A DNA stretch of 32,000 bases from Pseudomonadota bacterium (GCA_030145845.1 JAIXHJ010000003.1:92426-124425), one strand, 5' to 3'. Counted from the first letter of the stretch, positions 177 through 32,000 are shown. Numbers and translations are program-made. Notes: generated from the sequence alone by a model not told the origin.

Positions 177-833
177 TCAGCGGACCGGGACGTCGGCCAG
201 ATAAAAGGCAATGGCCCAGAAATGACAGAAACCACCGCCGATGACAAACAGATGCCAGATTTCGTGGAAACCAAACCATTTCGGCCAGGGGTCCGGCCAT
301 TTAGTGGCGTAAATCACGGCACCGATGGTGTAGCTGATACCGCCATAGGCGATCCAGCGCAGGGCATCGGCCGGGATCTGATCCACCACCGGCCAGACGA
401 ACACGACCAGCCAGCCCATCAGCACATAAATCACGGTTGAAAACCAGCGTGGCGCACTGATCCATACCACCTTAAGAATCACACCGGTGACCGCCAGTCC
501 CCATACCACACCAAACAGCCACCAACCGGTGGGACCGTTCAGCGGTACCAGACAGATGGGCGTATAAGTGCCGGCAATCAGCAGGAAGATGGCCATGTGG
601 TCGACCCGCTTCAGCCACTGAATCACTGCATCGGAGGCGTGAATCAGGTGATATACCGTGCTGCTGGTAAACATCACCAGCAGGGTGGCGCCGAAGATCA
701 TAAAAGACACCATATGCCAGACCCCACCATGGATGGCGGCCTGAGCGGCCAGGATGCACAGTGCCACAATGGCGAATACGGCTCCGGCAAGATGAGTCAG
801 ACCACTGATCGGATCGCGGAAAACTTTGTGCAT
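177..833 (-). CDS. trhA: Hemolysin III / PAQR family membrane protein (TrhA-like), 218 aa
   Basis: The C-terminal 218 aa of ORF 177..1304 start at ATG 833-831 ([20 protein letters not shown]...). The protein is multi-TM and has the family-typical motifs ..STVYH.., ..[15 protein letters not shown].. and ..HEIWHLFV... The upstream 157 codons overlap yhbQ antisense and look non-coding. Confidence 0.8.
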
Positions 834-902
834 ACAGGGCTTAACCTCTTTATCAACAGGACGGTACGATACGGTTTTCTGTATTTTCAACAAGGTAGAA
901 TT

Positions 903-1217
903 ATGTCCGCCACAGCAGCAAAGGCCGGACAGGCTGAGGATGATAGCTGGAACCTGTATCTGATCAGAACCCGTCAGGGCAGTCTGTATTGTGGCATCAG
1001 CAAAGATGTTGCACGGCGTTTCCGCGAGCATACCGCCGGTGGGGCAAAGTGCGCGCGGGCCCTGCGTGGACGAGGCCCGTTGCAGCTGGTGTTCAGCTGC
1101 CGGGCGGGCAGCCACCGCCGGGCGTTGCAACTCGAATACCGCGTCAAACAACTGAGTAAAGCGGCCAAAGAAGCCCTGATCCGGGGCGATACCGGGCTGC
1201 CTCAGCTGGATGTTTAG
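903..1217 (+). CDS. yhbQ: GIY-YIG nuclease superfamily protein (UPF0213, YhbQ-like), 104 aa
   Basis: From ATG 903: ..[28 protein letters not shown]...[13 protein letters not shown]...[13 protein letters not shown]. This is collinear with E. coli YhbQ ([50 protein letters not shown]). AAGG RBS lies 7 nt upstream. Confidence 0.85.
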
Positions 1218-1369
1218 CACTGCAGTTGTTCCGTTATGGAAACAATTATCCTCTCCTTTCAGGCCAGGGCTGCGCGGTGACGCTATTCTGAAACTATGGT
1301 ACAAACAAGGCGTGTCGGCCGGCGTCTGTCCGGTTGCCGGAAAAATAATAAAAAAAGGTATCCGTTCTC

Positions 1370-3606: not shown

Positions 3607-4377
3607 ATGTTTAAAGCCATTTGGGCGGCCCGTTGGTATGTGTTACTGGGCTTCTTCACATTCGTTATCGTTCTCGCCGTTAATACTCCTCTGCATTTCG
3701 TCTGGGGCTACGTTAAACCGCAGCTGGGGCGACTGCCTGTCCAGGTTGACCAGATTACCGGCACCGTCTGGGACGGCTCTGCGCGCCTGCGGGTCCCCAG
3801 GCTGAACAGCCTGGGCCCACTGGATGTCCGCTGGCAGCTGAGCCCTGTGGGCCTGCTGGGCGGTCAGGCGGATCTGGATGTGCACCTCAGTGGCAATGGC
3901 GTACGGCTCGATAGCGCCGCGTCTGTGGGCCTGAATCAGGTGCTGACACTGAGCGATGCCAGTGGTTATCTGGATGCTGCGGTGATTGCCCCGTTACTGA
4001 AACGGAACCGCGTGAATATTGCCGGCAGTTTTGAACTCAGCCAGCTGAATACCACGCTGGACACCAGCGCCGGGAATATTCAGGCACTGAGTGGCCGGCT
4101 GGTGTACAGCGGTGGTGCGATCGGTTTTCCGGTCAATAACAAGCCGGTTTCTGCGACCATGCCGGTGGTGGTGGGTGTGCTGGGAATGGATGGTGATAAA
4201 GCCGTTATTGATGCCGCCACCACGGATAATCTGCCGCTGATGCAGGGCTATATGCAGGCCGATGGCTGGGGCGGCGTGTCTATCCGCCGACGTTTCCTTG
4301 ATGTGCTGGGGCAGCAGTGGCCGAACCCGGCAGAAGAAGACACGGTTATTTTTGAAGTGTCTCATAAGGTTCTGTAA
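3607..4377 (+). CDS. gspN: Type II secretion system protein N (GspN), 256 aa
   Basis: N-terminal membrane anchor (WYVLLGFFTFVIVLAV) followed by ..LPVQVDQITGTVWDGSARL.., as is typical of GspN. It lies immediately upstream of gspC and gspD. Confidence 0.7.
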   Translation: MFKAIWAARWYVLLGFFTFVIVLAVNTPLHFVWGYVKPQLGRLPVQVDQITGTVWDGSARLRVPRLNSLGPLDVRWQLSPVGLLGGQADLDVHLSGNGVRLDSAASVGLNQVLTLSDASGYLDAAVIAPLLKRNRVNIAGSFELSQLNTTLDTSAGNIQALSGRLVYSGGAIGFPVNNKPVSATMPVVVGVLGMDGDKAVIDAATTDNLPLMQGYMQADGWGGVSIRRRFLDVLGQQWPNPAEEDTVIFEVSHKVL

Positions 4378-4409
4378 CCTTGAGCGCCTTGTAAACGGAG
4401 TATGACGCT

Positions 4410-5264
4410 TTGGCTGAACAGTTAGCAGAGTTAACAGGCTGGCAGCGCTTGTCGCTGGTGCTGGGTAAGACAGTACTTACCCTGCTGATTGCCACCCAGC
4501 TGGCCTGGCTGACCTGGCTGATTATTGCCCCGGAACCCCTGGTTCTGCGCGCGCCGGCCAAAGGACAGGTGGCTGAGGACAGTGCGGCGACTGCCGGTAC
4601 CGGTCAGTACCACCTGTTTGGTGATTACACGGCGGCACCGGTGGAGGAAGTACCACAGGAAGTTGAAGCACCGGATACCCGTCTGCGTCTTGAATTGCTG
4701 GGCGTTACCCGCTCCTCACGCAACGAATTGTCGTCTGCGATTATTGCGCCGAAGGGTGGCGCCGGTGATTTTTACCGGATCGGCGATGTGGTGCAGGGTC
4801 GTACCCGGCTGGCGGCGGTTTATGACGACAAGGTGATTCTGGATACCAACGGTAAGCTGGAAACCCTGAAGTTTGATGAAGAGTCCAAACGGGGGCTGGA
4901 AGCCCGGGCAGTCCAGGCACCGGAGCCGGACAGCTCCATACGTGACCGCTTCAAAGAGGTCCGTAATCCGACCGATTTTATGAATCTGGTGAATGAAGAA
5001 GCCGCGTCCGACCCGGAAGGGGCTCTGCGTGAAATGGGGCTGAAAGCAGCCGGGCCGGGGCAGGGTTATGTGGTGCAGAAAGGCTCAATGCTGACGGCGC
5101 TGCAGCTGCAGCCGGGCGATATCGTACTGTCAGTGAATGGTCAGCCGCTGGGGGATCCACAGTCGGATCAGCAGATTCTGCAGCAGGTGACAGAAGAAGG
5201 TAATGCCCGCATTGAAGTGCAGCGGGGTAACAGTCGTTTTGTCGTCAATCACAGTCTGAATTAA
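4410..5264 (+). CDS. gspC: Type II secretion system protein C (GspC) with C-terminal PDZ domain, 284 aa
   Basis: TTG start with GGAG 9 nt upstream. Single N-terminal TM (VLTLLIATQLAWLTWLII), an HR-like middle region (RLELLGVT...AIIAP.G..DFYRIGD...AVYDDKVILD) and a PDZ-like C-terminus (LQLQPGDIVLSVNGQPLGD). Directly precedes gspD. Confidence 0.8.
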   Translation: MAEQLAELTGWQRLSLVLGKTVLTLLIATQLAWLTWLIIAPEPLVLRAPAKGQVAEDSAATAGTGQYHLFGDYTAAPVEEVPQEVEAPDTRLRLELLGVTRSSRNELSSAIIAPKGGAGDFYRIGDVVQGRTRLAAVYDDKVILDTNGKLETLKFDEESKRGLEARAVQAPEPDSSIRDRFKEVRNPTDFMNLVNEEAASDPEGALREMGLKAAGPGQGYVVQKGSMLTALQLQPGDIVLSVNGQPLGDPQSDQQILQQVTEEGNARIEVQRGNSRFVVNHSLN

Positions 5265-5276
5265 AAGGAAATAAGT

Positions 5277-7184
5277 GTGTTTAAGCAGTGGGCATTCCTG
5301 TTCTTAATGTTTATCAGCGCCGGTGTTCAGGCTGCGGCCAAGGATAACTGGCAGATCAATATGAAGGACGCTGACATCGGCGCCTTTATCAGTCAGGTAG
5401 CGGATATTACCGGCCGCAGTTTTGTCGTTGACCCCAGGGTCAAAGGCAAGATCAATGTGTTGTCCAGCGAGCCGATGGATCAGGAAGGTGTGTATGAACT
5501 CTTCCTGTCCGTACTGCAGGTGCAGGGCTATGCGGCTGTACCGGCGGGGAATGTCACTCTGATTGTGCAGCAGAATGACGTCAAACAGGCCGGACGTGAC
5601 CTGAATGACAGTTACCCGGATGGCAGTCAGGAACTGCTCACCAAAGTCATTATGATCAAAAATACCCCGGCGCTGGATCTGGTGCCTATCCTGCGTCCGC
5701 TGGTGGCCAAATATGGTCATCTGGCCGGGGTGAAATCCGCGAATGCGCTGATTATTTCTGATCACGCGGCCAATATCAGCCGCATCGAACAGATTATTGA
5801 CCGGCTGGATAAATCCGGCAGTGAAGAACTGGAAGTGATTCAGCTGAAGGAAGCCTGGGTCGGTAATGTAGTGACCATGCTGCAGAATCTGGACCCGTCC
5901 AGGGTGGCGCAGGGTGCTTCCGCCAATGCCGCTGAAAATACCGCCGGTTCCATCCGCGTAGTGGCGGACGAGCGCAGTAACCGCCTGATTATCAAAGGCG
6001 AGAAAAGTGCGCGTGAGCGTATCCGCAAGCTGATTGAAGAGCTGGATCAGCCATCCTATTTCTCCGGTGCCGCCAAGGTTATCCGTCTGCAGTATGCGGA
6101 TGCCACCAAGCTGGCCGAAATGCTGAAAAATCTGCTTTCTGAAAGCACAACAACGGCTGAGAAAGAAGAGCAGCAGGTAAAAGGTTCGGTCGGGATTTAT
6201 GCCGATGAAGAACTGAATGCGCTGGTGGTGCGTGCTGAACCGTCGGTGATGAAAGAAGTCGAGGAACTGGTGAATTCACTGGATGTACGCCGGGCTCAGG
6301 TGCTGATCGAATCGGCGATTGTTGAAATCAGCGGCGACATTAATGATGCCCTTGGTGTGCAGTGGCTGTTCGGTGATCTGGATAATCCGGTTGCGGCGAC
6401 CAACTTCTCTGACGCCGGTACCTCACTGGCCGGTATTGCAACCTCGGTTGCCAGTGGCGATTACACCGATGCCATCAGCAATGGTCTGACGCTGGGCGGC
6501 TACAGTGAAATCAACGGTGAAGTCAGTTTTGGTGCCATCCTGCAGGCACTGAAAAGTAACTCCCATACGAACCTGTTGTCGACCCCGAGCATCATGACGC
6601 TGGATAACCAGGAAGCGGAAATTGTAGTGGGCCAGAATGTACCTTTCCTCACCGGCTCAACCGCATCCAGCAGCAACAGCAATCCGTTTACCACCATTAC
6701 CCGGGAAGATGTGGGTATCACCCTGAAAGTGAAACCCCATATTCATGATGGTGAAGCCATCCGTCTGGAAGTGGAAGCAACGGCGGAGTCAGTTTCCTCG
6801 ACTACCGTTGCCGGCAGTGCGGACCTGATCACCAATAAACGCTCCATCAAAACCATGATTCTGTCGGATGATCAGGAAACCATTGTACTGGGTGGACTGA
6901 TCCGTGATGACGTGACAGAGACTGAAAGCAAGGTGCCGCTGCTGGGCGATATTCCGCTGCTGGGCTGGCTGTTTAAATCCAAGTCCAAAAGCCATACCAA
7001 AAACAATATGATGGTTTTCCTGCGCCCGACGATTGTTGATAACCCGGGTAAAGCGAAGGAACTGACGCACGATAAATTCAATGGTATCTGGGAATTCAGT
7101 GTGTCGGACCAGCTGGGTGCCGAGGATATCAACAACCGCCTGAATCTGTTGTTTGACGGCTTACCGATCAAGCGCGAAGACTGA
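5277..7184 (+). CDS. gspD: Type II secretion system secretin GspD, 635 aa
   Basis: Signal peptide, then an N0 domain (NMKDADIGAFISQVADITGRSFVVDPRVKGKINV), N1-N3 repeats, and a secretin core (LLSTPSIMTLDNQEAEIVVGQNVPF...VPLLGDIPLLGWLFKS...MVFLRPTIV). GTG start with AAGGAA RBS. Confidence 0.95.
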   Translation: MFKQWAFLFLMFISAGVQAAAKDNWQINMKDADIGAFISQVADITGRSFVVDPRVKGKINVLSSEPMDQEGVYELFLSVLQVQGYAAVPAGNVTLIVQQNDVKQAGRDLNDSYPDGSQELLTKVIMIKNTPALDLVPILRPLVAKYGHLAGVKSANALIISDHAANISRIEQIIDRLDKSGSEELEVIQLKEAWVGNVVTMLQNLDPSRVAQGASANAAENTAGSIRVVADERSNRLIIKGEKSARERIRKLIEELDQPSYFSGAAKVIRLQYADATKLAEMLKNLLSESTTTAEKEEQQVKGSVGIYADEELNALVVRAEPSVMKEVEELVNSLDVRRAQVLIESAIVEISGDINDALGVQWLFGDLDNPVAATNFSDAGTSLAGIATSVASGDYTDAISNGLTLGGYSEINGEVSFGAILQALKSNSHTNLLSTPSIMTLDNQEAEIVVGQNVPFLTGSTASSSNSNPFTTITREDVGITLKVKPHIHDGEAIRLEVEATAESVSSTTVAGSADLITNKRSIKTMILSDDQETIVLGGLIRDDVTETESKVPLLGDIPLLGWLFKSKSKSHTKNNMMVFLRPTIVDNPGKAKELTHDKFNGIWEFSVSDQLGAEDINNRLNLLFDGLPIKRED

Positions 7185-8449: not shown

Positions 8450-8719
8450 AGGTCATCTCCATTCAATGCTGAGTCGGGTTGCGTACAGTTGCATAGATCT
8501 GCGACCGGCTGTACTGCTGTGAGTTCAGGCCAGTCGTCTTTATCAGTCAGAGGATCATAGCACTCCGGGAAAAGTCGCGCTATTCATGAAGACTATAAGG
8601 AATTACGATGAAACGGTCCGTGCCGTCAGTTCAACGATAGCCTTCATAATTTCTCCTGACAGAGGTTGTCGTTATACTGGCCGGATAATAAAGAACGCCA
8701 GCCATTAACAGGGGCAACG

Positions 8720-9514
8720 ATGGATAAAGAAAAAGAACCGATTGTGCCGGGTATGAAGCCGTCACAGGAAGATATTGCACTGCGTCAGAAGCAGCTGGCA
8801 GCCCGCCGTGCGGCGGCCCAGCGCGCAGCAACCTCGAAGCCGCGTGCAACTCAGGCGGCGGTTGTGGCGCAGCCGCAGAAGCAGACACTGGCCATCATCG
8901 CGCTGCTGATTGCGCTGGCAATGGGTGGGCTGGCGGCGTTCAGTTTTATGCAGTTGCAGAAGGTTCAGCAGAAACTTGGTAATGCTGAAGCTATCATCCG
9001 CGATCAGGCTGACAACCTGAAAGTCCTGAATGAAAAACTGTCGGTGACCGGTGAAAACGCCAATCTGTCGGTGGATGCACTGAAGGCCATTGTGAAAGAC
9101 AATGCCAGTGAAATCCGCAAGCTGTGGGACGTTTCCAATAAACGTAACAAAGCGAACATTGCCAGCAATGAGAAAGCCATCGGTAGTGTGAAAGGCCAGC
9201 TCAGCAGTCTGCAGAAAGAGCTGAAATCCGGACTGGCAGCACAGCAGAAAAGTGTGGCCGCGGTGGAGAAAAAACTCAGTGAAAAAGAGCAGGCACTGAC
9301 CAGCCGGATCGCCCGGGTGGAAAAGGATGCGGCAAGCATCCCGGCTGAGAATCAGATCCGTATCTCGCAGAACACTGAAAACCTGCAGTTGCTGGAAGCC
9401 TCAGTACAGAAGCTGCGCAACGGTGGTGATGTCGGCGATATGAAACTGGAGATTGAAGATATTCAGATCCGTCTCGACCGTATCCAGAATGCGCTGGGTG
9501 GTACCACCCCCTGA
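8720..9514 (+). CDS. Hypothetical single-pass membrane protein with a long coiled-coil ectodomain, 264 aa
   Basis: Start taken at ATG 8720 (MDKEKEP...). Basic N-terminus, one TM (LAIIALLIALAMGGLAAFSF), then about 180 aa of heptad-like K/E/Q/L-rich sequence. No family recognised. Confidence 0.55.
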   Translation: MDKEKEPIVPGMKPSQEDIALRQKQLAARRAAAQRAATSKPRATQAAVVAQPQKQTLAIIALLIALAMGGLAAFSFMQLQKVQQKLGNAEAIIRDQADNLKVLNEKLSVTGENANLSVDALKAIVKDNASEIRKLWDVSNKRNKANIASNEKAIGSVKGQLSSLQKELKSGLAAQQKSVAAVEKKLSEKEQALTSRIARVEKDAASIPAENQIRISQNTENLQLLEASVQKLRNGGDVGDMKLEIEDIQIRLDRIQNALGGTTP

Positions 9515-10335
9515 TGGGTAGCGGAACGGTCAGCCTCAGCGCCGCTCCTGATGTGCTGCGCAGTGCGTTGGCTGATCTGCTGACGCAGCAACCTTCCCAC
9601 CAGGCTGCCCGCCTTGCCGGGCAGCAGGCGGATACGCCGGGAACGGCATTTTTCTGTGGATATCAGGCGGCCATGCGCTGTCTGGTGCCGGCGCTGCCCG
9701 CTGATCTCTGGGCCGCTTTCTGTATTTCCGAGCGCGGGCTGCGCTCTCTGTCAGCGATGCAGACCCATTACCTTGACGGGCACCTGTATGGTGGCAAATC
9801 CCATGTGATGCTGGCCGGTCAGGGGCTGGATCGTCTGTATGTGGTAGCACTGGATGAACAGCAGCGGCTGGTGTGCGTGCAGGTGGACGCCACGGCCAGC
9901 GGACTGCGTGCGGAAGCGCCCGGGAAAGCGCAGTCGTTTCTGCCGGAAGTACCGCATTTCCCGGTGACATTCGATGGTGTTGCGGTCAGTGCGCTGATCT
10001 CCACCGATGCCCACCGGCAGCTGAACCGGCCTTTCCGTTACTGGGAAGATGTGCATGTCGCACTGGCCATGGCCGGCTGGATGAATGCGCGGACAGAAGC
10101 GGCGGCGCTGGCGGCCGCCGCTGATGAGCTGGCAGCCGCTTATGCCTCACAGCCCGGTGGCTACGGTCTGCCGGCTCTGGATCGGCTGGAGTCTCTGCTG
10201 CAACGTCTGGATCAGGCGGCAGCGGGGCTGACCGCTGAGGATAACAAGCACTGGCAGCGTGACCGCATGCTGTTAGTGCTGGGACAGCCGCTGCGCCAAC
10301 GTATCCGGGCCGGTCTCAGCGCACCGTCACCCTGA
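9514..10335 (+). CDS. Hypothetical Ala/Leu-rich cytoplasmic protein, 273 aa. A distant acyl-CoA-dehydrogenase-like relationship is only a weak impression.
   Basis: Its ATG overlaps the upstream stop (TGATG at 9512-9516), suggesting translational coupling. Third-position GC richness is consistent with coding. The motif ..FFCGYQAAMRCL.. vaguely recalls ACAD-family proteins, unverified. Confidence 0.5.
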   Translation: MGSGTVSLSAAPDVLRSALADLLTQQPSHQAARLAGQQADTPGTAFFCGYQAAMRCLVPALPADLWAAFCISERGLRSLSAMQTHYLDGHLYGGKSHVMLAGQGLDRLYVVALDEQQRLVCVQVDATASGLRAEAPGKAQSFLPEVPHFPVTFDGVAVSALISTDAHRQLNRPFRYWEDVHVALAMAGWMNARTEAAALAAAADELAAAYASQPGGYGLPALDRLESLLQRLDQAAAGLTAEDNKHWQRDRMLLVLGQPLRQRIRAGLSAPSP

Positions 10336-21905: not shown

Positions 21906-22571
21906 ATGAATATGACAACCGAAGGCAAGCGCCGCGCTGTCTTTACTGTGCTGTCTGAATTTGTGGATGGCCGTGAGCTGTGGCAGGCGATGTGGCGTTG
22001 GCAGAATAATTATTCTGATAAATCCCAGTTTGAGCTGAATGCGTTTTTATCAGATTGCCGTGATATTGAAGGTATTGCCGTTAACCGGCCCACGCTTTAC
22101 CGACGGCTGATTGGTATTCTGATGAATAACAGTGCGGATATGAAGCCTGATCCGATTCAGGATATGCTGCAGTTCCGTGAACAAACCGCCATGGACAGCG
22201 GAGCGTCGGCAGCAGAGGATTGGTCAGAAACTTTCACTCTGGTGCTGCAGGGCATCTTTGCGCAACTGCGGTCTGATACCGCCAGAATGGTGAAGCAATA
22301 CGCCACAGAGCAGGCAAGCCGGGACCATCTGGCCAAATCCCTGGTGTATGAATTTACCCTCTGGGAGGGCGATCAGCTGCTCGGCGTCAGCGGTGTGCCA
22401 TTACAGGATCTGCGTCGCCTGCTGAATGTTATTTATATCGGCGTGTGTGAGTCGCTGGGGCCGGTTGCAGCAGACCGTATTCTCAGTACTGCGGTGACGG
22501 ACGCGGCTGATGCGCTGGCAGCACAGAACGTCAGTGCACCAGAGCCGCGGCTGTTGCTGAGCAGGCCATGA
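21906..22571 (+). CDS. Hypothetical cytoplasmic protein co-transcribed with amt, 221 aa
   Basis: ATG 4 nt after the amt stop, same strand. No signal peptide or TM segment. No family recognised (MNMTTEGKRRAVFTVLSEFVDGRELWQAMWRWQNNYSDK...). Confidence 0.55.
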   Translation: MNMTTEGKRRAVFTVLSEFVDGRELWQAMWRWQNNYSDKSQFELNAFLSDCRDIEGIAVNRPTLYRRLIGILMNNSADMKPDPIQDMLQFREQTAMDSGASAAEDWSETFTLVLQGIFAQLRSDTARMVKQYATEQASRDHLAKSLVYEFTLWEGDQLLGVSGVPLQDLRRLLNVIYIGVCESLGPVAADRILSTAVTDAADALAAQNVSAPEPRLLLSRP

Positions 22572-23701: not shown

Positions 23702-24889
23702 TCAGATCAGCTCAATCGCCACGGCAGTGGCTTCACCACCACCGATACACAGAGCGGCAACACCTTTGCTGCCACCGGTATTTTTCAGGGCGTTCATCAG
23801 GGTAACGATCAGACGGGAACCGGTAGACCCCACCGGGTGACCCTGGGCACAGGCGCCGCCGTAAATATTGACTTTGTTGATGTCCAGTTTCAGCTCATCG
23901 ACCGGCATCATGGCAACCATGGCAAAGGCTTCGTTGATTTCATACAGGTCAACGTCATCCTTGCTCCAGCCGGCTTTGGCCAGAACTTTTTCGATAGCAC
24001 CGACCGGCGCGATGGTGAACTCAGACGGATGCTGTGACTGAGTGGCGTGGGCAACGATACGGGCCATCGGTTTGATGCCTTTTGCGCTGGCAGCGGCTTC
24101 GCTCATCAGCACCAGTGCCGAGGCGCCATCAGAAATGGAAGAAGCGTTGGCGGCGGTGATGGTGCCGTCTTTGCTGAATGCCGGGCGCAGGGACGGGATC
24201 TTCTCAATATTGGCGTTGAAGGGCTGTTCATCCTGATCGACAACGGTTTCACCCTTGCGGGTTTTGACCGTAACCGGAACAATTTCAGCCGCGTTCAGGC
24301 CTTTTTCGATCGCATCTTTGGCACGGGTCAGTGACATGATGGCGTACTCGTCCATCTGTTCACGGGTATAGCCTTTCTTGTCCGCCATTTCCTGCGCGAA
24401 CGCACCCATCAGTTTGCCGGTTTCGGCATCTTCCAGACCATCCAGGAACATATGGTCCTTGGCCTGGTCGCCGTGACCCATGCGGTAACCACCACGGGCA
24501 CTTTCCAGAATGTAGGGCGCATTGGACATGGATTCCATGCCGCCGGCGACGGCAATGTTCACGGAACCGGCTTTGATGGCATCGAAGGCCATCATGGTGG
24601 CTTTCATACCGGAACCACACAGTTTGTTCACGGTGGTTGCACCGGTGGCATCCGGCAGACCGGCTTTACGCATGGCCTGACGGGCCGGGCCCTGCTTCAG
24701 GCCGGCAGGCAGAACATTGCCCATGATCACTTCTTCGACATCGGCGGCTTCAATGCCGGCACGCTTGACTGCCTCAGCAATGGCGAGGGAGCCAAGTTCA
24801 GTTGCGCCAACAGGGGCCAGGCTGCCACCGAAGCCCCCCATTGGGGTACGGGCGCCGGCAACGATGACTACAGAGTTCTGGTCAGACAT
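23702..24889 (-). CDS. Acetyl-CoA C-acetyltransferase (thiolase II), 395 aa
   Basis: MSDQNSVVIVAGARTPMGGFGGSL...VNKLCGSGMKA (active-site Cys)...NEAFA...NIYGGACAQGHPVGSTGSR...ALCIGGGEATAVAIE. AGGAGA RBS. Confidence 0.95.
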   Translation of the reverse strand: MSDQNSVVIVAGARTPMGGFGGSLAPVGATELGSLAIAEAVKRAGIEAADVEEVIMGNVLPAGLKQGPARQAMRKAGLPDATGATTVNKLCGSGMKATMMAFDAIKAGSVNIAVAGGMESMSNAPYILESARGGYRMGHGDQAKDHMFLDGLEDAETGKLMGAFAQEMADKKGYTREQMDEYAIMSLTRAKDAIEKGLNAAEIVPVTVKTRKGETVVDQDEQPFNANIEKIPSLRPAFSKDGTITAANASSISDGASALVLMSEAAASAKGIKPMARIVAHATQSQHPSEFTIAPVGAIEKVLAKAGWSKDDVDLYEINEAFAMVAMMPVDELKLDINKVNIYGGACAQGHPVGSTGSRLIVTLMNALKNTGGSKGVAALCIGGGEATAVAIELI

Positions 24890-25179
24890 GTTCTGTCTCC
24901 TGAATCAGATAACAAAAGGGTGGCTATTTTAGAGGAATGTGTTTGTGAATCACAATCACAGCTCTGTGGACTGAAAATGGCAGGTGCGACGGATTCTGCG
25001 ACTAACGTCTTGGTTACATACAGATACAAAATGGGAGGGTGATAAGACAGGAATCATACTTTTGAGTGATGAGGGTGCGCTTCGGCCAGATTATAGTCAT
25101 GGCTTCACTCTGGGGTGGGGAGACTCTCATTACTCTCCGGAGTGCACTAATAACCATAAAAACACAGACAGGTAGCAAT

Positions 25180-28100
25180 ATGGTGAAGAAGACCCTTCTC
25201 AGTCTGGCCATCGCAGCCACCGCAGCGGGCCTTGCCGGCTGTAATATCAGTAGCGTTGAAAAGTACAACGACGATGTCGATCAGACAGCTGTCAACTCCG
25301 GCTTGCCTGGCGCGACCCCTGGCCGGGTTGCACCGGTATTTTCTGCGGGTAATAAAGACCTGCCACTGATTACCGACTTTATCTTCAGCGAGGCGGCGGC
25401 GACGGATGGAACTGCAAGTGTTGATGACACAACACCTCCGGTCACGACCGCGATGAATTCCATTGAAGGTGCATCCGTTGTTGCACCTATTGATATTGAA
25501 TTCAATGCTCCGCTGGACGCTGAATCACTGAACCAGCCTCTGGCGGTAAACCTGATTAAGTTGCGTAATTATCAGGATGACCCTGATATCGACGCGCTTG
25601 ATATTGACACTATTGTTGCTAACTCTGATGTTGAAAATGGTATCCCGCAGGTCGTTGCGGATGACCAGCCTGTAGCTGGTGTAGATTACACGGTTTCTTT
25701 CCTGAACCTTGATAGTGGTGACACACCAACATTACGTATCAATCTTATCAACCCATTGGATGCACGTTCCAAATACATCGTTGCCCTGACGTCTAATCTG
25801 AAAGCTGAAAATGGGGAGAATGCAGGTCCATCGGCAGAATATGAGCTTCTTTCCGGCAGCCTTGAACTTCCATCTGATGCGCTGGAACCTGTGCGTACAG
25901 CGATTCAGGGATGGGAGCAGATTGCTGAGGGATATCTGACTCAGGTTGCTGCGCTGTACAGCATTGCTAAACCGGATGTCATTCTGAGTTATGCCTTTAC
26001 GACCGGTGGTACCAATGAAGTCCTCAAAAGTATCGCGGCACCGAAACTGTATGTGATGGCCCTGGCTTCCCGGCCTGATACGGCGAAATCATTGTATCTG
26101 GCAGTGCTGAGCTCTTTAAATGGTGGAGATCTGACTGCTGTTCAGACTGCCTATATCACGAATATTATTGTGCCGGCAGCTACCGCTGAAAGTATTACTC
26201 TGAGCGGGACTCCGACAGCAGAAGAAATTGCTGCTGTTGAAGTGACTGATACCTATAAAACGATGATTGTCACTGCAGCCAGCAGCTCTGCGGTTATTGA
26301 TGCTGTTGCTGCGACTTTGTATACACCTTCCAGTCAGACTTATAAGCCTATTATGAAACCTGCCAGTCTTGGCGGTGACGTCGTGGCGCTTTCTCCCAGC
26401 AATATCCCGGCGTTTACCGGAACCGCTTTTTCTGCCGATACCCTGACTCACTATGTTCAGGGGCAGCTTCAGCTTCCTGTGGGGCTGACCTCTCCGGCTT
26501 TAACAAATACTCAGGCTCTTGCTTCCGGTGATCCGGCGACTATCGCCGGAGCTGTTAAGCTAAGCATGGCTTCTGATAGCGTCTGGAGCGCGTACTCTGT
26601 TAATGGTGGGTTGACACCTCCATCAGATAATAAAATTTTTGATCCTGCGACGGGTACCCTGACCAGTGAAGGCGTGACTGTTGTGTCAACCGATGAGGAT
26701 GGTAGTCCGGAAGAATACAGTGGTGGCATGACCAATGTAACCTATCGTTATCCGCTGGCGGACTTAAGTGAAACAGAATATGCGCCGGTGATGGTGACTC
26801 TTCCTGGCGGTGATTATACATTCGGTGGAGCAAACCCGGATACGACCGCTCAGGATTGTTCAGCTTATTCAAAATATCCGGTTCTGTTGTACGTTCATGG
26901 CATCACATCAGACCGTACATCCAGTCTTGCAATAGGTGCGGCAGCTGCATCCAAAGGGTGTTTTGCAACTGTTGCTCTGGATCTCCCTCTTCATGGTGTG
27001 GCTCCTCTGGTCTCCGATCGTGATGGGACTTCCGAGCTGAATGGCGCCATGGCGTTCAATGTTGAGCAGGCAACAGATCTGTCGTCTTTAACTGTCGGTA
27101 GCGCCGAGTACATCACAGCTTTTTCTGAGGCCCCTTATGCCAATGCGGCCGCTATTGATGGCTCGTTTGACCTGCAGGAGCGTCACTTCAATATCGGAGC
27201 CGAACCGGCCAGCAGTGCCCGGGTAAGTATGGTATATGGTGATTCAGCGGCGACTTCACTTGGTAAGTCCGGCGATCTGTTTATCAACTTAGCCAATATG
27301 GGGCGGCTGCGGGACAACATGCGTGAAGCAGTTGTTGATCAGATGCACTTACTGGCTTCCCTGGCAGATATGGATGTTGATGGCGACGGCGTTGCTGATC
27401 TCGATGCTGATAATGTCTATGTCGCCGGTATTTCTCTGGGGGCTATTGTCGCTTCGTCTTTGGTTGCAACCGTTAATGATCCTCAGGTTCAGGCGGTCAA
27501 TGGTCTGGATAATGGTGGTACGCTTCCATTGATTAAAGGCGTTGTGTTGTCCAGTCCTGGTGGTTCTCTGCCGAAAATGCTGGAAAACTCTCCTGCTTTC
27601 TCCACTAAGGTTCTGGCAGGTCTGAATCTGGCTCAGGACAGTTCAGCACTGCAGAAGTATGAAGCAATGTTGCAGACTGCGCTGAACAGTGTTGATCCGA
27701 TTAATTTCGCGTCTGCCATGAGTCAGCAGAATACGCCGGTGCTGATGTTCAGTATGGTTGGTGGCGGTGATTGCCCTGCTTTTGACATTGCTACTGCCGC
27801 CTGTTCGGACGGTTCTCAACGCTTACCATCGGATCTTACTCTGGCCTTCCAGGGGAAATATCCGGCAGATCATGTGGTTCCTAATTACGACTACTTCAAA
27901 GCTGCTGACAGTAATCCGTTTACAAATGTTATGCCTGGCCTGACTTATGAGTTAGGTGATCTGGGGGCAAAAACTGAAATTGCTTTGACGGAAATGACTT
28001 CTTCTGCGATGCCTCTGGCTGGTACCGCCCCTCTGGCAGAACAAATGGGTCTGAAACCAGTTGTCGGGGATAATATCGCTAGTGTATCCGGTAATAAATA

Positions 28101-28263
28101 TGTGCTGCAGTTTGATAAAGGTACACATTCGACCTTTGCAGCTGCTGATGACACTGCTGTGTTTACTACCATGATGGCCCAGATGCTGACATTCTTCTCT
28201 GGAGGTACTGCTAATGGTCTTAACCCATTAACAACCGATGGCATTAAACCTGCTGCAGAATAA
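25180..28263 (+). CDS. VolA/Pla-1-family extracellular lipase/(lyso)phospholipase, predicted lipoprotein, 1027 aa
   Basis: Start at ATG 25180. Lipobox GLAGC|NIS. The N-terminal region (..APVFSAGNKDLPLITDFIF....DGT......PVTTAMNSIEGASVVAPIDIEF..PLD..SL) resembles the bacterial virulence-factor lipase N-terminal domain. An alpha/beta-hydrolase part follows (YPVLLYVHGITSDR....ALDLPLHG) with the nucleophile elbow G-I-S-L-G at nt 27427-27441. Confidence 0.65.
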   Translation: MVKKTLLSLAIAATAAGLAGCNISSVEKYNDDVDQTAVNSGLPGATPGRVAPVFSAGNKDLPLITDFIFSEAAATDGTASVDDTTPPVTTAMNSIEGASVVAPIDIEFNAPLDAESLNQPLAVNLIKLRNYQDDPDIDALDIDTIVANSDVENGIPQVVADDQPVAGVDYTVSFLNLDSGDTPTLRINLINPLDARSKYIVALTSNLKAENGENAGPSAEYELLSGSLELPSDALEPVRTAIQGWEQIAEGYLTQVAALYSIAKPDVILSYAFTTGGTNEVLKSIAAPKLYVMALASRPDTAKSLYLAVLSSLNGGDLTAVQTAYITNIIVPAATAESITLSGTPTAEEIAAVEVTDTYKTMIVTAASSSAVIDAVAATLYTPSSQTYKPIMKPASLGGDVVALSPSNIPAFTGTAFSADTLTHYVQGQLQLPVGLTSPALTNTQALASGDPATIAGAVKLSMASDSVWSAYSVNGGLTPPSDNKIFDPATGTLTSEGVTVVSTDEDGSPEEYSGGMTNVTYRYPLADLSETEYAPVMVTLPGGDYTFGGANPDTTAQDCSAYSKYPVLLYVHGITSDRTSSLAIGAAAASKGCFATVALDLPLHGVAPLVSDRDGTSELNGAMAFNVEQATDLSSLTVGSAEYITAFSEAPYANAAAIDGSFDLQERHFNIGAEPASSARVSMVYGDSAATSLGKSGDLFINLANMGRLRDNMREAVVDQMHLLASLADMDVDGDGVADLDADNVYVAGISLGAIVASSLVATVNDPQVQAVNGLDNGGTLPLIKGVVLSSPGGSLPKMLENSPAFSTKVLAGLNLAQDSSALQKYEAMLQTALNSVDPINFASAMSQQNTPVLMFSMVGGGDCPAFDIATAACSDGSQRLPSDLTLAFQGKYPADHVVPNYDYFKAADSNPFTNVMPGLTYELGDLGAKTEIALTEMTSSAMPLAGTAPLAEQMGLKPVVGDNIASVSGNKYVLQFDKGTHSTFAAADDTAVFTTMMAQMLTFFSGGTANGLNPLTTDGIKPAAE

Positions 28264-28283
28264 GATTGGGGCGGAGAATAAAT

Positions 28284-30179
28284 ATGAAAATAACAAATAT
28301 GGGTTTGCGCTCAATGAAAAAATTACCTTTATCTCTGGCTGTATCTGCTCTGGCTGCGTCTTCAGTGCAGGCCGTCGAGTTTAATTTCGGAGACCTCAGT
28401 GCCCAGTTCGATAATACCGTCAGTTATGGTGTCGCATGGCGTACCTCTGACCGTGATAAAGGCCAGATCATGCCGGGTAATGGGGCGGCCATTGGCGAAA
28501 CAACTTATGGCTCTTCTTACAACTATGACGACGGTACTCTGAACTACAGCAAAGGTGATATTTACACCAATGTTGTTAAATGGAGTGGGGATCTGGAGCT
28601 GAATTATCAGAATTATGGCGGTTTCTTCCGTGCCCGCGCTTACTATGATACGGCAATTATGGATGAAGATACTGACTTCAAACCACTGAGTGACGGTACC
28701 AAAGATGCTGCTGGCAAAGGTGCTGAACTGCTGGATGCTTATGTCTGGGCTGACTATGAAATTGGCTATACGCCAATCAACGTCCGTGTTGGTCGCCAGG
28801 TGGTAAGCTGGGGCGAAAGTACCTTTATTCAGGGTGGCATTAACAGCATTAACCCGGTGGATGCTTCTGCATTCCGTAAACCCGGAGCTGAAGTTAAGGA
28901 AGGTCTGCTGCCGGTTAATATGGTGTATACCTCAATCGGTCTGTCCACGGATTTAACACTGGAAGCTTTTTATCAGCTGCAATGGGAAAAAACCCGTACT
29001 GATCCATGTGGTACATTCTTTTCCACCGTTGATTTTGTCGCGGATGACTGTAGCCCGGTAATCCTGGGTGGAACGGCAGATGAGCGCGATATGCTTGCTT
29101 TCCGTGATGCGGAAATTGAAGCGGGCGTTCCGTTGTCTGATCGTGTTTCTCCGGTGACCGAACGTCTGCCGGATGATCAGCCGAAAGATTCCGGTCAGTA
29201 TGGTCTGGCTTTGCGCTGGTATTCAGAAGCACTGGGGGATACAGAATTCGGTCTGTACTACATGAATATCCACAGTCGTCTGCCATATATTAATGGTGCG
29301 GTGACCAATTACGATACGCTGGGTACTATCACCGGTACCGTCGGTGATCAGGTTAATGCCGATGCAACATACGATACTTACCGCCCTCTGTATCAGATTG
29401 CTTATCCTGAAGACATTCAGATCATGGGTATCAGTTTTGCGACCAGTACCGAAGATGGTGCATCCATTTCCGGTGAAATCAGTTACCGCCCGGATATGCC
29501 GGTGCAGTGGAACGCTTTTGAGCTGATTCTGGCCGGAACCGGTACGCCGTGGAGCCGTCTGTATCAGGCGCGTGCTGCTGAAGCCGATGATATTACCGAT
29601 CTTTATGGTGAGCTCACTAAAGGTTATGACGAACTTGATATCTGGCAGGCGCAGATGACGTATATCAAATTCTTTGACCGGGTCCTGGGGGCCGACCGCC
29701 TGGCTGTGGTGGGTGAAATCGGTATGACTTACGTAAACGACCTGCCGAGTACGGATGAAGCACGTTATGGCCGTTCCGGTGCTTATGGTATCGGTAATAA
29801 TGGTGGCGTATATGATTCCGTGAACCACTGTGCGGCCAGCGGTGATGCAACGGCAAACGTAAATACCGACTACTGTACCAATGACGGTTATACCACTGAG
29901 CTTTCCGGCGGTATCCGTGTGCGCAGTATTCTGGATTTCAATAACGCCTTTGCCGGTATTAACGTCAGCCCGATGCTGTCTGTTGCCTATGATAAAGGGA
30001 ATGGTCCGGAGCCGGGTGCGCAGTTTATTGATGATCGTCTGACCGTGGGTCTGGGGGTAACCTTTGTTTATCTGAACAAGACATCGGTGGATGTGACTTA
30101 CACCAACTTCTCCGGTGGCGACTACAATCAGATGGTTGACCGCGACAACATCGCCTTGTCTGCGAAATATTCGTTCTGA
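28284..30179 (+). CDS. DUF1302 family protein (predicted outer-membrane beta-barrel), 631 aa
   Basis: ATG 28284 with GGAG 7 nt upstream. Signal peptide ..LAVSALAASSVQA|VEF. The N-terminus VEFNFGDLSAQFDNTVSYGVAWRTSDRD is typical of DUF1302. The C-terminus ..IALSAKYSF has a terminal aromatic beta-signal. Confidence 0.85.
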   Translation: MKITNMGLRSMKKLPLSLAVSALAASSVQAVEFNFGDLSAQFDNTVSYGVAWRTSDRDKGQIMPGNGAAIGETTYGSSYNYDDGTLNYSKGDIYTNVVKWSGDLELNYQNYGGFFRARAYYDTAIMDEDTDFKPLSDGTKDAAGKGAELLDAYVWADYEIGYTPINVRVGRQVVSWGESTFIQGGINSINPVDASAFRKPGAEVKEGLLPVNMVYTSIGLSTDLTLEAFYQLQWEKTRTDPCGTFFSTVDFVADDCSPVILGGTADERDMLAFRDAEIEAGVPLSDRVSPVTERLPDDQPKDSGQYGLALRWYSEALGDTEFGLYYMNIHSRLPYINGAVTNYDTLGTITGTVGDQVNADATYDTYRPLYQIAYPEDIQIMGISFATSTEDGASISGEISYRPDMPVQWNAFELILAGTGTPWSRLYQARAAEADDITDLYGELTKGYDELDIWQAQMTYIKFFDRVLGADRLAVVGEIGMTYVNDLPSTDEARYGRSGAYGIGNNGGVYDSVNHCAASGDATANVNTDYCTNDGYTTELSGGIRVRSILDFNNAFAGINVSPMLSVAYDKGNGPEPGAQFIDDRLTVGLGVTFVYLNKTSVDVTYTNFSGGDYNQMVDRDNIALSAKYSF

Positions 30180-30218
30180 GTTATTGGCTGATATAAGAAT
30201 TACAGAGGTCTATGAAGC

Positions 30219-31580
30219 ATGTTGAATAAACACAGTAAATTCTGGGGCAGCGCGCTGGCGCTGTCCCTGATGATCGGTACAGCAGATGCTGCTGTGTCTG
30301 AGGCAGAAGCTGCAAAACTTGGCAAAGAACTGACCCCGGTTGGTGCTGAAATGGCAGGCAGTGGAGCTATCCCTGCCTGGACCGGCGGTCTGACCAAACC
30401 ACCGGCAGGCTATGTCGCGGGTGGTAAACCGGTTGACCCGTTTCCGGATGACAAAGTTAAGTTTGAGATTACGGCCAGGAATTATAAGCAGTATGCGGCA
30501 AATCTGACGGATGGTCAGAAAGCGATGTTTGAGAAATATCCGGACACCTACAAGATGCCGGTATATGAAACACGCCGTACCGCTGCCTATCCGCAGTTTA
30601 TTTATGATGAAACCAAAAAGAATGCGACCACAACCAAACTGCTTGAGGGCGGTAATGGCCTGACTAACTATTCAGAAGGCACGCCGTTCCCTATTCCGCA
30701 GAGTGGTGTTGAGGCCATCTGGAATCACATTGTGCGTTACCGTGGTGGCAGTGTCCGCCGTATTGTTGGTCAGGTGACACCACAGGTTAACGGTGATTTT
30801 ACTCTGGTCCGTTTCCAGGATGAGTTCACCTTCCGGAATAAACTGAAGGATTATAACCCTGAGCAGGATCAGAACGTGCTGTTCTACTTTAAGCAGGATG
30901 TTCTGTCTCCGGCGCGTCTGGCCGGTAACGTACTGCTGGTACATGAAACACTGGATCAGGTAAAAGAGCCGCGCAAAGCATGGGTATATAATGCCGGTCA
31001 GCGCCGTGTCCGCCGTGCGCCTCAGGTTTCTTATGATGGTCCGGGAACCGCGTCAGATGGTCTGCGTACCTCGGATAACCTGGATATGTATAACGGTGCC
31101 CCGGATCGCTATGACTGGAAACTGCTCGGTAAACAGGAAATTTATATCCCCTATAATTCCTATAAACTGAAAGATCCGAAGCTGAAGTACACTGACATCA
31201 TCAAGCCGGGACATATCAACCAGGATCTGGCCCGCTATGAACTGCACCGTGTATGGAAAGTCGAGGCAACCCTGAAAGAAGGTAAGCGTCACATCTATGC
31301 CAAGCGGGTATTCTATATTGATGAAGATACCTGGCAGGCAGCTGAGATTGATCATTACGATGGCCGTGGTGAACTGTGGCGTGTGGCTGAAGCCTACAGC
31401 CTGATGTACTACGAGCAGCTGGTTCCGTGGTACGCCCTCGAAACCCTGTACGATCTGAACTCCGGACGTTATCTGGCTCTGGGTCTGGATAATGAAGAAG
31501 AAGGTTCTTACGTGTTTGGCTTTGAACGTACTTCTGCGGATTACACACCGGCCGCTCTGCGCCGCAGTGGTGTCCGTTAA
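30219..31580 (+). CDS. DUF1329 family protein (periplasmic, outer-membrane lipoprotein-sorting-like fold), 453 aa
   Basis: Signal peptide ..LSLMIGTADA|AVS. AVSEAEAAKLGKELTPVGAEMAGSGAIPAWTGGL is the characteristic DUF1329 N-terminus. AGAGG RBS. Confidence 0.85.
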   Translation: MLNKHSKFWGSALALSLMIGTADAAVSEAEAAKLGKELTPVGAEMAGSGAIPAWTGGLTKPPAGYVAGGKPVDPFPDDKVKFEITARNYKQYAANLTDGQKAMFEKYPDTYKMPVYETRRTAAYPQFIYDETKKNATTTKLLEGGNGLTNYSEGTPFPIPQSGVEAIWNHIVRYRGGSVRRIVGQVTPQVNGDFTLVRFQDEFTFRNKLKDYNPEQDQNVLFYFKQDVLSPARLAGNVLLVHETLDQVKEPRKAWVYNAGQRRVRRAPQVSYDGPGTASDGLRTSDNLDMYNGAPDRYDWKLLGKQEIYIPYNSYKLKDPKLKYTDIIKPGHINQDLARYELHRVWKVEATLKEGKRHIYAKRVFYIDEDTWQAAEIDHYDGRGELWRVAEAYSLMYYEQLVPWYALETLYDLNSGRYLALGLDNEEEGSYVFGFERTSADYTPAALRRSGVR

Positions 31581-31600
31581 TATTCATACGGATACAGAAT

Positions 31601-31629
31601 AAAAAAAGGGGCCATCAGGCCCCTTTTTT
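31601..31629. terminator. Bidirectional intrinsic terminator after the DUF1329 gene, convergent with the OMP gene
   Basis: A7, then ggggcc-atca-ggcccc hairpin (31608-31623), then T6. Confidence 0.85.
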
Positions 31630-31644
31630 ATGTCATTCTGCTGA

Positions 31645-32000
31645 TCAGAAATTAAACACCAGACTGGCCTGATACACGGATGATGCGTCTTTGTTAATAA
31701 ACTCTGCGCGGACGTCCACTTCTTTGCTCAGATGAAAACCACCACCGGCACCGAGCAGGATGCCATCATCATCGCCGAAGTCGAGGCCGATACGGGCAAG
31801 GGCGAACAGATTAGGGTTGATTTCCGGCAGGTTTTTTTCCACGACGCCGGCGACCCACAGGCCGTTAATATCATTGTCGCCACCACGGTAAAAATCATCC
31901 GTATCTGAATAGCCGAGTTCGGCAGTGGTTTTTACGCCACGCATATCGTTAGCAAATTCATAACCGGCAAAAACGGAAAAGCCGAGTGCATCTTCACTGC
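31645..32000 (-). CDS. Outer-membrane beta-barrel (porin/OmpA-barrel-like) protein, C-terminal part; gene runs off the right edge
   Basis: The reading frame stays open to nt 32000 (..SEDALGFSVFAGYEFANDMRGVKTTAELGYS...). It has an alternating-hydrophobic beta-strand pattern and ends ..YQASLVFNF with a terminal Phe beta-signal. Confidence 0.6.
   Translation of the reverse strand, partial: SEDALGFSVFAGYEFANDMRGVKTTAELGYSDTDDFYRGGDNDINGLWVAGVVEKNLPEINPNLFALARIGLDFGDDDGILLGAGGGFHLSKEVDVRAEFINKDASSVYQASLVFNF

Follow-up and report, generated by a model that had tools for sequence, protein, structure and literature searches.

A VolA-related lipoprotein lipase gene joined to a DUF1302-DUF1329 pair in one marine bacterial lineage: a candidate envelope module for acquiring acyl esters or lipids

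A stretch of 32,000 nucleotides (nt) from a Pseudomonadota bacterium (GCA_030145845.1, JAIXHJ010000003.1:92426-124425), here called the window, contains three consecutive genes that encode, in this order, a predicted lipoprotein lipase related to VolA, a DUF1302 protein and a DUF1329 protein (Table 1). A prior interpretation made from the DNA alone, referred to below as the sequence-only reading, had described three same-strand genes, each with its own ribosome-binding site (RBS), and a sole strong terminator beyond the third. Coordinates and motifs bear this out. The intergenic gaps are exactly 20 nt (lipase/DUF1302) and 39 nt (DUF1302/DUF1329), and RBS-like motifs precede the lipase (AGGT, 6 nt 5′ of the ATG at 25180), DUF1302 (GGAG, 7 nt 5′ of 28284) and DUF1329 (GAGG, 11 nt 5′ of 30219). 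The terminator, AAAAAAGGGGCC-ATCA-GGCCCCTTTTTT, has a 12-pair stem (six of the pairs GC), a loop of 4 nt and flanking T/A runs at both ends; terminator-like matches total eight against a shuffle expectation of 6.0 ± 2.3, the seven others being weak and intragenic. Promoter-like matches number six, under the shuffle expectation of 9.0 ± 2.9. The three genes are presumably co-transcribed.

Table 1. Features of the lipase locus, in coordinates of the window
Feature	Coordinates	Strand	Remarks
Acetyl-CoA C-acyltransferase (thiolase)	23702-24889	-	divergent from the lipase operon
Shared intergenic region	24890-25179	+	predicted conserved promoter/leader of the lipase operon
Lipase (gene 1)	25180-28263	+	1027 amino acids (aa)
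DUF1302 (gene 2)	28284-30179	+	631 aa, signal peptide
DUF1329 (gene 3)	30219-31580	+	453 aa, signal peptidase I type signal
Bidirectional intrinsic terminator	31602-31629	both	closes the lipase operon and the convergent gene
Small outer-membrane beta-barrel gene	31645-32000	-	convergent; truncated where the window ends; relatives have about 166 aa

The lipase opens with MVKKTLLSLAIAATAAGLAGC, a signal peptide and LAGC lipobox (25180-25242) that sets Cys21 at the predicted lipidation site with Asn at +2 (LAG/C21-N-I-S). A disordered tether (residues 22-43) is followed by a Lipase_bact_N region, a helical and beta-rich middle and a C-terminal alpha/beta-hydrolase domain. The GISLG motif occupies residues 750-754 (27427-27441; Ser752 codon at 27433-27435). 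Ser752, Asp897 and His983, together with His573 of a His573-Gly oxyanion motif, are invariant in 72 lipase homologues, and Cys21 is kept in at least 90% of them. The profile search that the sequence-only reading had suggested as a check matched lipase models: Lipase_bact_N (PF12262) at residues 75-285 with 43.8 bits (cutoff 22.3; Pfam), and the VolA/Pla-1 model TIGR03502 with E 1.7e-62 and 211.7 bits, under its cutoff of 383.9 bits (NCBIfam). Eight related lipases (types B, C, D and E, Marinobacter-type, Bermanella-type and that of locus L080) likewise score 167-279 bits on TIGR03502, all below the cutoff. The window lipase thus appears homologous to VolA/Pla-1, but outside the curated TIGR03502 subfamily. 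The AlphaFold2 model (predicted local distance difference test score, pLDDT, 87.8; predicted template-modelling score, pTM, 0.91) matched only alpha/beta-hydrolase esterases and lipases in a Foldseek search of PDB, at 10-14% identity, among them acetyl xylan esterases, esterase D and the membrane phospholipase A PlaF (6i8w). A sequence search of PDB returned nothing for either the lipase or DUF1302, and no close relative of the lipase has been solved. The window comes from an uncultured gammaproteobacterium; the protein is 100% identical to KYX62_05360 of a metagenome-assembled genome (MAG), and the closest relatives, Thalassolituus, Bacterioplanoides and Oleispira, are marine oil degraders. 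In sum, gene 1 is predicted to encode an outer-membrane lipoprotein serine lipase or esterase of the wider VolA/Pla-1 family, so that its VolA-like designation from lipobox and GISLG was apt. VolA (VCA0863) of Vibrio cholerae is a surface-exposed lipoprotein lysophospholipase (PMC3656444), the one family member for which surface exposure and this activity are established, and by analogy the window lipase probably faces the exterior as well.

The two partner genes belong to families that are widespread in Pseudomonas and in marine and hydrocarbon-degrading Proteobacteria and that have strong fatty-ester fitness phenotypes without a solved structure or biochemical function; published proposals cast them as esterases, as exporters of envelope components or as a transport system. 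Their assignment in the sequence-only reading was confirmed by profile search, as were the signal peptides and the C-terminal YSF of gene 2. DUF1302 (signal peptide ending in SVQA before VEF, C-terminus AKYSF) matches PF06980 with 560.8 bits (threshold 23.2) over model positions 8-541 of 541. Its AlphaFold2 model (pLDDT 82.9) is a large barrel whose best Foldseek matches in PDB are MOMP, Omp-Pst1, OccAB2/3, AlgE and chitoporin, with no FadL among the top 50 and no Toluene_X match in Pfam. This agrees with a 2026 paper that describes DUF1302 as an 18-stranded OccAB/AlgE-like barrel and reports an AlphaFold-Multimer model of a DUF1302-DUF1329 complex with an interface pTM of 0.84. DUF1329 (signal peptide ending in TADA before A) matches PF07044 over its full length with 548.5 bits and LolA_like with 37.6 bits (cutoff 30), and has a weak sequence match in PDB to a lipoprotein-sorting protein (9tp6, E 0.003). 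AupA and AupB of Marinobacter are not DUF1302 and DUF1329, the paper on them describing AupA as FadL-like.

A census centred on the lipase, built on an alignment of 16 lipases and covering 56 loci in one-genome-per-species contigs, found DUF1302 as the next gene after 33 lipase genes in 30 loci, at spacings of -44 to +60 nt, the negative values being due to over-extended starts of open reading frames (ORFs). Neither DUF1302 nor DUF1329 occurs within 10 kb in 18 other informative loci, and eight of the 56 are uninformative. All positive loci belong to a single lineage (Oleispira, Thalassolituus, Bacterioplanes, Bacterioplanoides, Oceanobacter and MAGs of Saccharospirillaceae/Oceanospirillaceae); the negative ones come from Marinobacter, Hahellaceae, Oleiphilaceae, Halospina, Salicola, Tamilnaduibacter and Halomonadaceae. 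There, the gene 3′ of the lipase usually lies on the opposite strand or is a small unannotated ORF, and a few loci have a larger same-strand ORF in that place. Many negative loci retain the fumarase neighbourhood of the window, some with pterin-4a dehydratase or purU as well. Because this neighbourhood is common to loci lacking the DUF genes, the lipase is the older resident, which the DUF pair joined once. Lipoproteins of about 880 aa encoded on the minus strand near some Marinobacter/Salicola-type lipases (L039 14701-17355, L042 13145-15778, L047 13187-15877, L056 12330-14954) were considered as VolA relatives and ruled out: the two examined, of L042 and L047, are PvdQ/penicillin-amidase-like acylases, not lipases, and score 445 and 441 bits on NF051460, below the cutoff.

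The complementary census started from DUF1302. A phmmer scan of 1.84 billion cluster representatives gave 2795 DUF1302 clusters, and an alignment of ten DUF1302 sequences led to 80 metagenome loci, at 38-100% identity to the loci's best reference copy. At DUF1302 identities of at least 46%, a lipase homologue lies directly upstream in 25 of 26 informative loci; at 45% or less, in none of 41. Adjacency is therefore enriched within one lineage, where it holds in all 30 informative genome loci, and is absent both from the 18 lipase loci without the DUF genes and from the 41 distant DUF1302 loci. Being limited to one family-level lineage, Bermanella included, adjacency represents essentially one evolutionary invention rather than a recurrent association.

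Elsewhere, other genes take the place of the lipase. Upstream of DUF1302 in lipase-less loci stands an AMP-binding acyl-CoA ligase in 13 cases and occasionally a BNR, MFS or other protein; in eight lipase-less metagenome loci, a thiolase about 80% identical to that of the window stands directly upstream of DUF1302 in plus orientation. No larger beta-oxidation operon is evident, since the genes beyond this thiolase look his- or housekeeping-like, as judged by N-terminal sequences only. A MalT/LuxR regulator of about 900 aa comes next after DUF1329 in 18 of 38 loci. The subgroup with about 50% DUF1302 identity is Bermanella, whose lipase is about 30-40% identical. In B. marisrubri (L139 13884-20642, CP051183.1) the order is thiolase on the minus strand, lipase, DUF1302, DUF1329 and MalT/LuxR (897 aa), with a FadL/Toluene_X gene about 5 kb further downstream. 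This arrangement links the lipase operon to the Pseudomonas-type cassette, and the lipase operon is a family-level variant of a general cassette, [acyl-metabolism gene]-DUF1302-DUF1329-[MalT], of which PP_0763-0767 in P. putida is the representative that has been studied. To follow the locus beyond the window end, two near-identical contigs (L137 and L138) were used, which had been reached with P0122, 98% identical, in place of the window's own DUF1302/DUF1329. Genes for BNR, RND or MalT proteins occur neither in the 32-kb window nor within 10 kb downstream in these contigs; what follows there is genes for a pyrophosphatase, a TonB-dependent receptor and a hybrid sensor kinase. A FadL gene is likewise missing from the window and from both contigs.

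On its other side, the operon faces a thiolase (Thiolase_N, E 3e-84; Thiolase_C, E 1e-42; TIGR01930, 409.9 bits, above cutoff). The divergent thiolase adjoins the lipase or DUF1302 in nearly all Oceanospirillaceae-type loci that retain upstream sequence, L019 being the one in which it was not detected; purU was seen, in such loci, only where the upstream sequence reaches its position. The region between thiolase and lipase contains conserved blocks at about 25013-25033, 25051-25077, 25091-25098 (TTATAGTC; TATAGT box included) and 25148-25179, the last being a 32-nt leader with RBS that ends at the start codon. Alignment of 16 loci, representing at least six genera, shows the blocks to be invariant; their spacing is fixed in 34 loci, and such a conserved putative promoter/leader is found only 5′ of the lipase. 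The region has no sigma-70 -35 box at the appropriate distance. A leader hairpin (25106-25144) varies in sequence and is predicted in 14 of 14 folded leaders, with non-significant z-scores per sequence; RNAalifold on the MAFFT-aligned leader gave no consensus structure, and Rfam found no family on the intergenic region, its only match being at chance level and at the terminator. In an exact-motif search the promoter blocks appeared only in Thalassolituus/Oleispira-type loci, which does not show a regulon common to DUF-less lipases or lipase-less DUF pairs. The codons of the lipase signal peptide are also unusually conserved, with 93% nucleotide identity to the sister locus L034, the rest of the gene being unalignable.

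The same sister genome (L034, OY821639.1) reveals how the block is inherited. Its flanks are 97-99% identical to the window in nucleotide sequence, and the interval between them (window 25300-31570, L034 10120-16020) is a recombination mosaic: identity collapses at about 25300, just 3′ of the lipoprotein signal peptide, and returns to 99% at the terminator, with a breakpoint near 31570. Within the tract, L034 has a different lipase type, unalignable over the body of the protein, and DUF1302 and DUF1329 are 70-88% identical to those of the window. Synonymous divergence (dS) from L034 is 0.02 for purU, 0.28 for thiolase, 0.97 for DUF1302 and 1.05 for DUF1329, and the ratio of nonsynonymous to synonymous divergence (dN/dS) is 0.09 for DUF1302 and 0.09 for DUF1329. 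Flanks at 97-99% identity, dS near 1.0 and dN/dS of 0.09 indicate that the three-gene block was imported whole by recombination and has since been under purifying selection, not decay. Conservation in related genomes makes the three-gene arrangement more than chance, and the data support the view that the three genes behave as one unit, at spacings of at most 60 nt, in many genomes.

A single origin is also what one would expect of a historical accident, in which a DUF1302-DUF1329 cassette landed beside an ancestral lipase gene in one lineage and the two kept independent functions. Such an origin would accord with the ancestral neighbourhood of the lipase (fumarase, pterin-4a dehydratase, purU), common to DUF-less Marinobacter/Hahella-type loci, and with a locus of the clade that has no lipase (L071). 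We regard this explanation as very unlikely, given that spacing of at most 60 nt with no terminator has been kept while lipases diverged to about 30% identity and DUF1302 to about 46-50%, that lipase-DUF1302 pairs duplicate and translocate together, that the block recombines as one tract, and that the conserved promoter/leader stands only in front of the lipase.

The duplications just mentioned concern the lipase and the barrel more than the third gene. At least five lipase types (A-E) exist in the lineage, and three Oleispira MAGs carry two lipase-DUF1302 pairs, of types A and C, with a single DUF1329 (L004 4442-16401, L005 3031-16477, L006 4704-16389). Which side of the thiolase carries the second pair depends on the genome, L005 having it on the other side. 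Each barrel clusters with those from genomes of like lipase type. The barrel that accompanies the type C lipase (DUF1302b) is 83-92% identical to barrels of other type C genomes, compared with 65% to the co-resident DUF1302a. With thiolase distance controlled, the partial correlation is 0.41 between lipase and DUF1302 distances and 0.15 between lipase and DUF1329, values that are descriptive only because the pairs are non-independent.

These observations bring to mind a different role for the barrel: DUF1302, with DUF1329 as a LolA-like chaperone, could be the docking platform or surface-translocation device of the lipase, forming with it a co-diversifying physical "lipid utilisome" akin to SusC/SusD-type barrel-lipoprotein complexes or to Slam-dependent surface lipoproteins. 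Joint duplication and relocation of lipase and barrel beside a single DUF1329, the affinity of DUF1302b to barrels of the same lipase type, the higher partial correlation and the LolA-like fold of DUF1329 all point this way, as does the hypervariability of the block between near-identical genomes, which is common for surface-exposed proteins; moreover, the route of VolA to the surface is unexplained (PMC3656444). Against this, VolA expressed heterologously in E. coli K-12 is also surface-exposed, and a dedicated partner is thus unnecessary for VolA (PMC3656444); 18 loci with orthologous lipases have no linked DUF pair, and no lipase-family gene precedes DUF1302 in the 41 distant loci. Nor is the co-variation strict: L001 combines a type A lipase with a barrel similar to those that accompany type C, and the barrels of the window and L034 are mutually closest despite different lipase types. 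We consider a partner-barrel role unlikely. An equally improbable elaboration is that the surface lipoprotein hydrolase caps or docks on its cognate DUF1302 barrel, that DUF1329 serves as a shared LolA-like shuttle, and that lipase and barrel are exchanged or duplicated as a cassette, changing substrate range or surface identity. If this were true, a lipoprotein that depends on the barrel, and not the DUF proteins themselves, would be the esterase that escaped identification in P. putida (see below).

On balance we lean, if only slightly, towards reading the operon as a cell-envelope module for acquiring acyl esters or lipids. The outer-membrane-anchored lipase would attack extracellular or envelope-proximal acyl esters; DUF1302 would provide a large porin-like barrel, and DUF1329 a LolA-like periplasmic carrier of hydrophobic ligands that is predicted to bind the barrel. 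Together the two DUF proteins would move hydrophobic cargo over the outer membrane and periplasm towards beta-oxidation, a thiolase being encoded divergently from the same region. As cargo, the intact ester or lipid, or else a product passed on directly at the lipase, would be more likely than free fatty acid taken from the medium. Since the operon already includes a lipase, the DUF proteins are likely to act as its transport or handling partner rather than as a hydrolase. This reading draws on gene structure, protein families and folds, tight linkage, block inheritance, purifying selection and the catabolic context in other lineages. From these we infer the location of the lipase, its physical coupling to the barrel, the cargo and the inward direction, the last because the gene context is catabolic and includes an activator.

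The best functional evidence on the pair comes from Pseudomonas putida, in which mutants of PP_0765 (DUF1302), PP_0766 (DUF1329) and PP_0767 (LuxR) have severe defects on Tween 20; PP_0765 and PP_0766 mutants are also defective on butyl stearate and show no defect on laurate or myristate (Thompson et al. 2020). The fatty-ester phenotype named in the sequence-only reading is therefore real. The esterase was not identified in that study, and its authors speculated that the DUF proteins might be the esterase (Thompson et al. 2020). Defects on esters, not on laurate or myristate, argue against free fatty acids as cargo, which weakens the sequence-only reading in one respect: it had cast the DUF pair as the conduit for fatty acids released by the lipase, occupying the place of FadL. 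The behaviour of the genes as a unit and the fatty-acyl contexts are supported; free fatty-acid cargo and a FadL-like role have become less likely. Replacement of FadL is further weakened by the predicted fold of DUF1302, which is not FadL-like, and by the retention of FadL genes in related bacteria (TOL_1625 in T. oleivorans, the Toluene_X gene in Bermanella). A transport role for DUF1302 and DUF1329 had already been proposed: co-folding suggested a substrate transport system in which the barrel is predicted to bind DUF1329, and DUF1329 also to bind a BNR-RND pair (Foldy 2024).

Several points weigh against acquisition. The reading rests on sequence, fold and genomic context. The orthologous lipases of Marinobacter, Hahellaceae, Oleiphilaceae and Halomonadaceae lack a DUF1302/DUF1329 gene for 10 kb downstream, the majority of DUF1302/DUF1329 pairs occur without a lipase, and within the clade the metagenome locus L071 dispenses with it. 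Because adjacency has essentially a single origin, the many loci that show it do not count as phylogenetically independent. The window and the 10 kb downstream in the near-identical contigs are without a BNR, RND or MalT gene; in other bacteria, the DUF pair shows co-fitness with a BNR protein and with an RND pump, a kind of pump that normally works outward. Finally, the homologous AmeABCD system of Castellaniella defragrans, comprising AmeA (DUF1302), AmeB (DUF1329), AmeC (BNR) and AmeD (HAE3 RND), is interpreted as a monoterpene exporter (PMC6394551).

Taken together, the last of these points define an export or tolerance alternative, in which DUF1302 supplies the outer-membrane and DUF1329 the periplasmic component of a tetrapartite HAE3-RND system of the Ame type that expels hydrophobic or amphiphilic molecules. 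Linkage to a lipase would then mean protection from its membrane-active products (free fatty acids, lysolipids), or export of lipid to reach oily substrates. The four families are co-encoded in Ame, and cells with ame deleted tolerate monoterpenes less well and accumulate more Nile Red (PMC6394551); the DUF pair is co-fit with a BNR protein and a COG1033 RND protein, for which export of an envelope component was proposed (Price et al.); and in P. putida the BNR and RND genes PP_2018 and PP_2019 share the Tween 20 phenotype. However, the genes beside the pair serve catabolism (acyl-CoA ligase, thiolase, lipase) or activation (MalT-type regulator) and are not typical efflux repressors, and the butyl stearate phenotype exists though butyl stearate is not a detergent. 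The ame mutant fails on hydrocarbon but not on oxygenated monoterpenes (PMC6394551), a pattern that fits uptake equally well. RND and BNR genes are, moreover, not near the operon, as described above. In our opinion export is fairly unlikely.

The finding bears on the uptake of water-insoluble esters by oil- and lipid-degrading marine bacteria, and the cultured Thalassolituus, Oleispira and Bermanella offer a genetically tractable handle on two families of unknown function.

Other features of the window and of related genomes are recorded here for completeness. In about 14 related loci the convergent small barrel has homologues, 165-170 aa long except for one of 182 aa in L023; its gene is at the same position in 12 loci and further downstream in L010 and L023, and PF13505 (OMP_b-brl) matches three of the homologues. 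It is a syntenic neighbour, for which membership in the module is not claimed; the gene caller missed it in L137 and L138. At the opposite end of the window, genes at 177-1304 (minus strand), 1370-3475 and 3607-7184 encode, respectively, a haemolysin-III family protein, a homologue of neutral/alkaline ceramidase, and proteins N, C and D of type II secretion; the last two entries add a lipid-active enzyme and a secretion system within the same 32 kb. Three ORFs without a Pfam match (282, 273 and 221 aa) lie at 8666-10335 and 21906-22571, the first two overlapping by one base (9514) and possibly being translationally coupled. The segment 14638-18342 encodes a 660-aa PhoX-like protein that carries a DUF7151 domain and, after it, a protein of 552 aa whose match to cytochrome P460 is sub-threshold. 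In T. oleivorans, TOL_3187, an MMPL(RND)-LolA-like fusion, is 42-fold up on the n-C28 alkane, and the porin-like TOL_3188 adjacent to it is detected only on n-C28 (PMC6304351); these parts (RND, LolA-like, barrel) are those of DUF1302/DUF1329/RND systems, here tied to a very hydrophobic substrate.

Among known systems, the VolA-FadL operon of Vibrio is the closest parallel to the lipase side of the locus. As the sequence-only reading had it, VolA is encoded beside a fadL-type gene: volA is co-transcribed with fadL (VCA0862) at a spacing of 16-23 bp, coupling lipid hydrolysis to uptake (PMC3656444). Both lipases are lipoprotein serine lipases with a Lipase_bact_N-type N-terminus, a residue other than Asp at +2 and a GxSxG motif, and both genes lie tight against that of an outer-membrane barrel, at 20 bp in the window. 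The window lipase differs in several ways: it is longer by about 230 residues, contains additional helical and beta-rich regions and has the sub-cutoff TIGR03502 score given above. Gene order is also reversed, and the neighbour is not a FadL/Toluene_X gene but DUF1302, a porin/OccAB/AlgE-like barrel, to which a LolA-like periplasmic protein is added. FadL/TodX channels in general, including AupA of Marinobacter, resemble DUF1302 as outer-membrane proteins for hydrophobic substrates encoded beside catabolic or lipolytic genes, without relationship in sequence or fold.

The DUF side of the locus has two counterparts. In P. putida KT2440, PP_0765-0767 comprise the same two Pfam families in identical order, linked to fatty-acyl catabolism; the pair is required on fatty esters, a barrel-carrier complex is predicted, and the Bermanella version keeps the MalT-type regulator downstream. 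The Pseudomonas cassette (PP_0763-0767) has an acyl-CoA ligase upstream where the window has the lipase, and MalT is missing from the window and the near-identical contigs, a convergent small outer-membrane protein gene lying downstream instead. AmeABCD shares DUF1302 and DUF1329 (LolA superfamily) set among genes for catabolism of hydrophobic substrates; it differs by its BNR (COG4447) and HAE3-RND (COG1033) components, neither of which is encoded near the window operon, up to 10 kb downstream in L137/L138, and by having no lipase. We found no paper in the literature linking a VolA-like lipase to DUF1302/DUF1329. The lipase operon overturns nothing in these systems; it would be a lipase-conduit coupling of the VolA-FadL kind, built on a PP_0765/0766-type pair and limited to one marine family.

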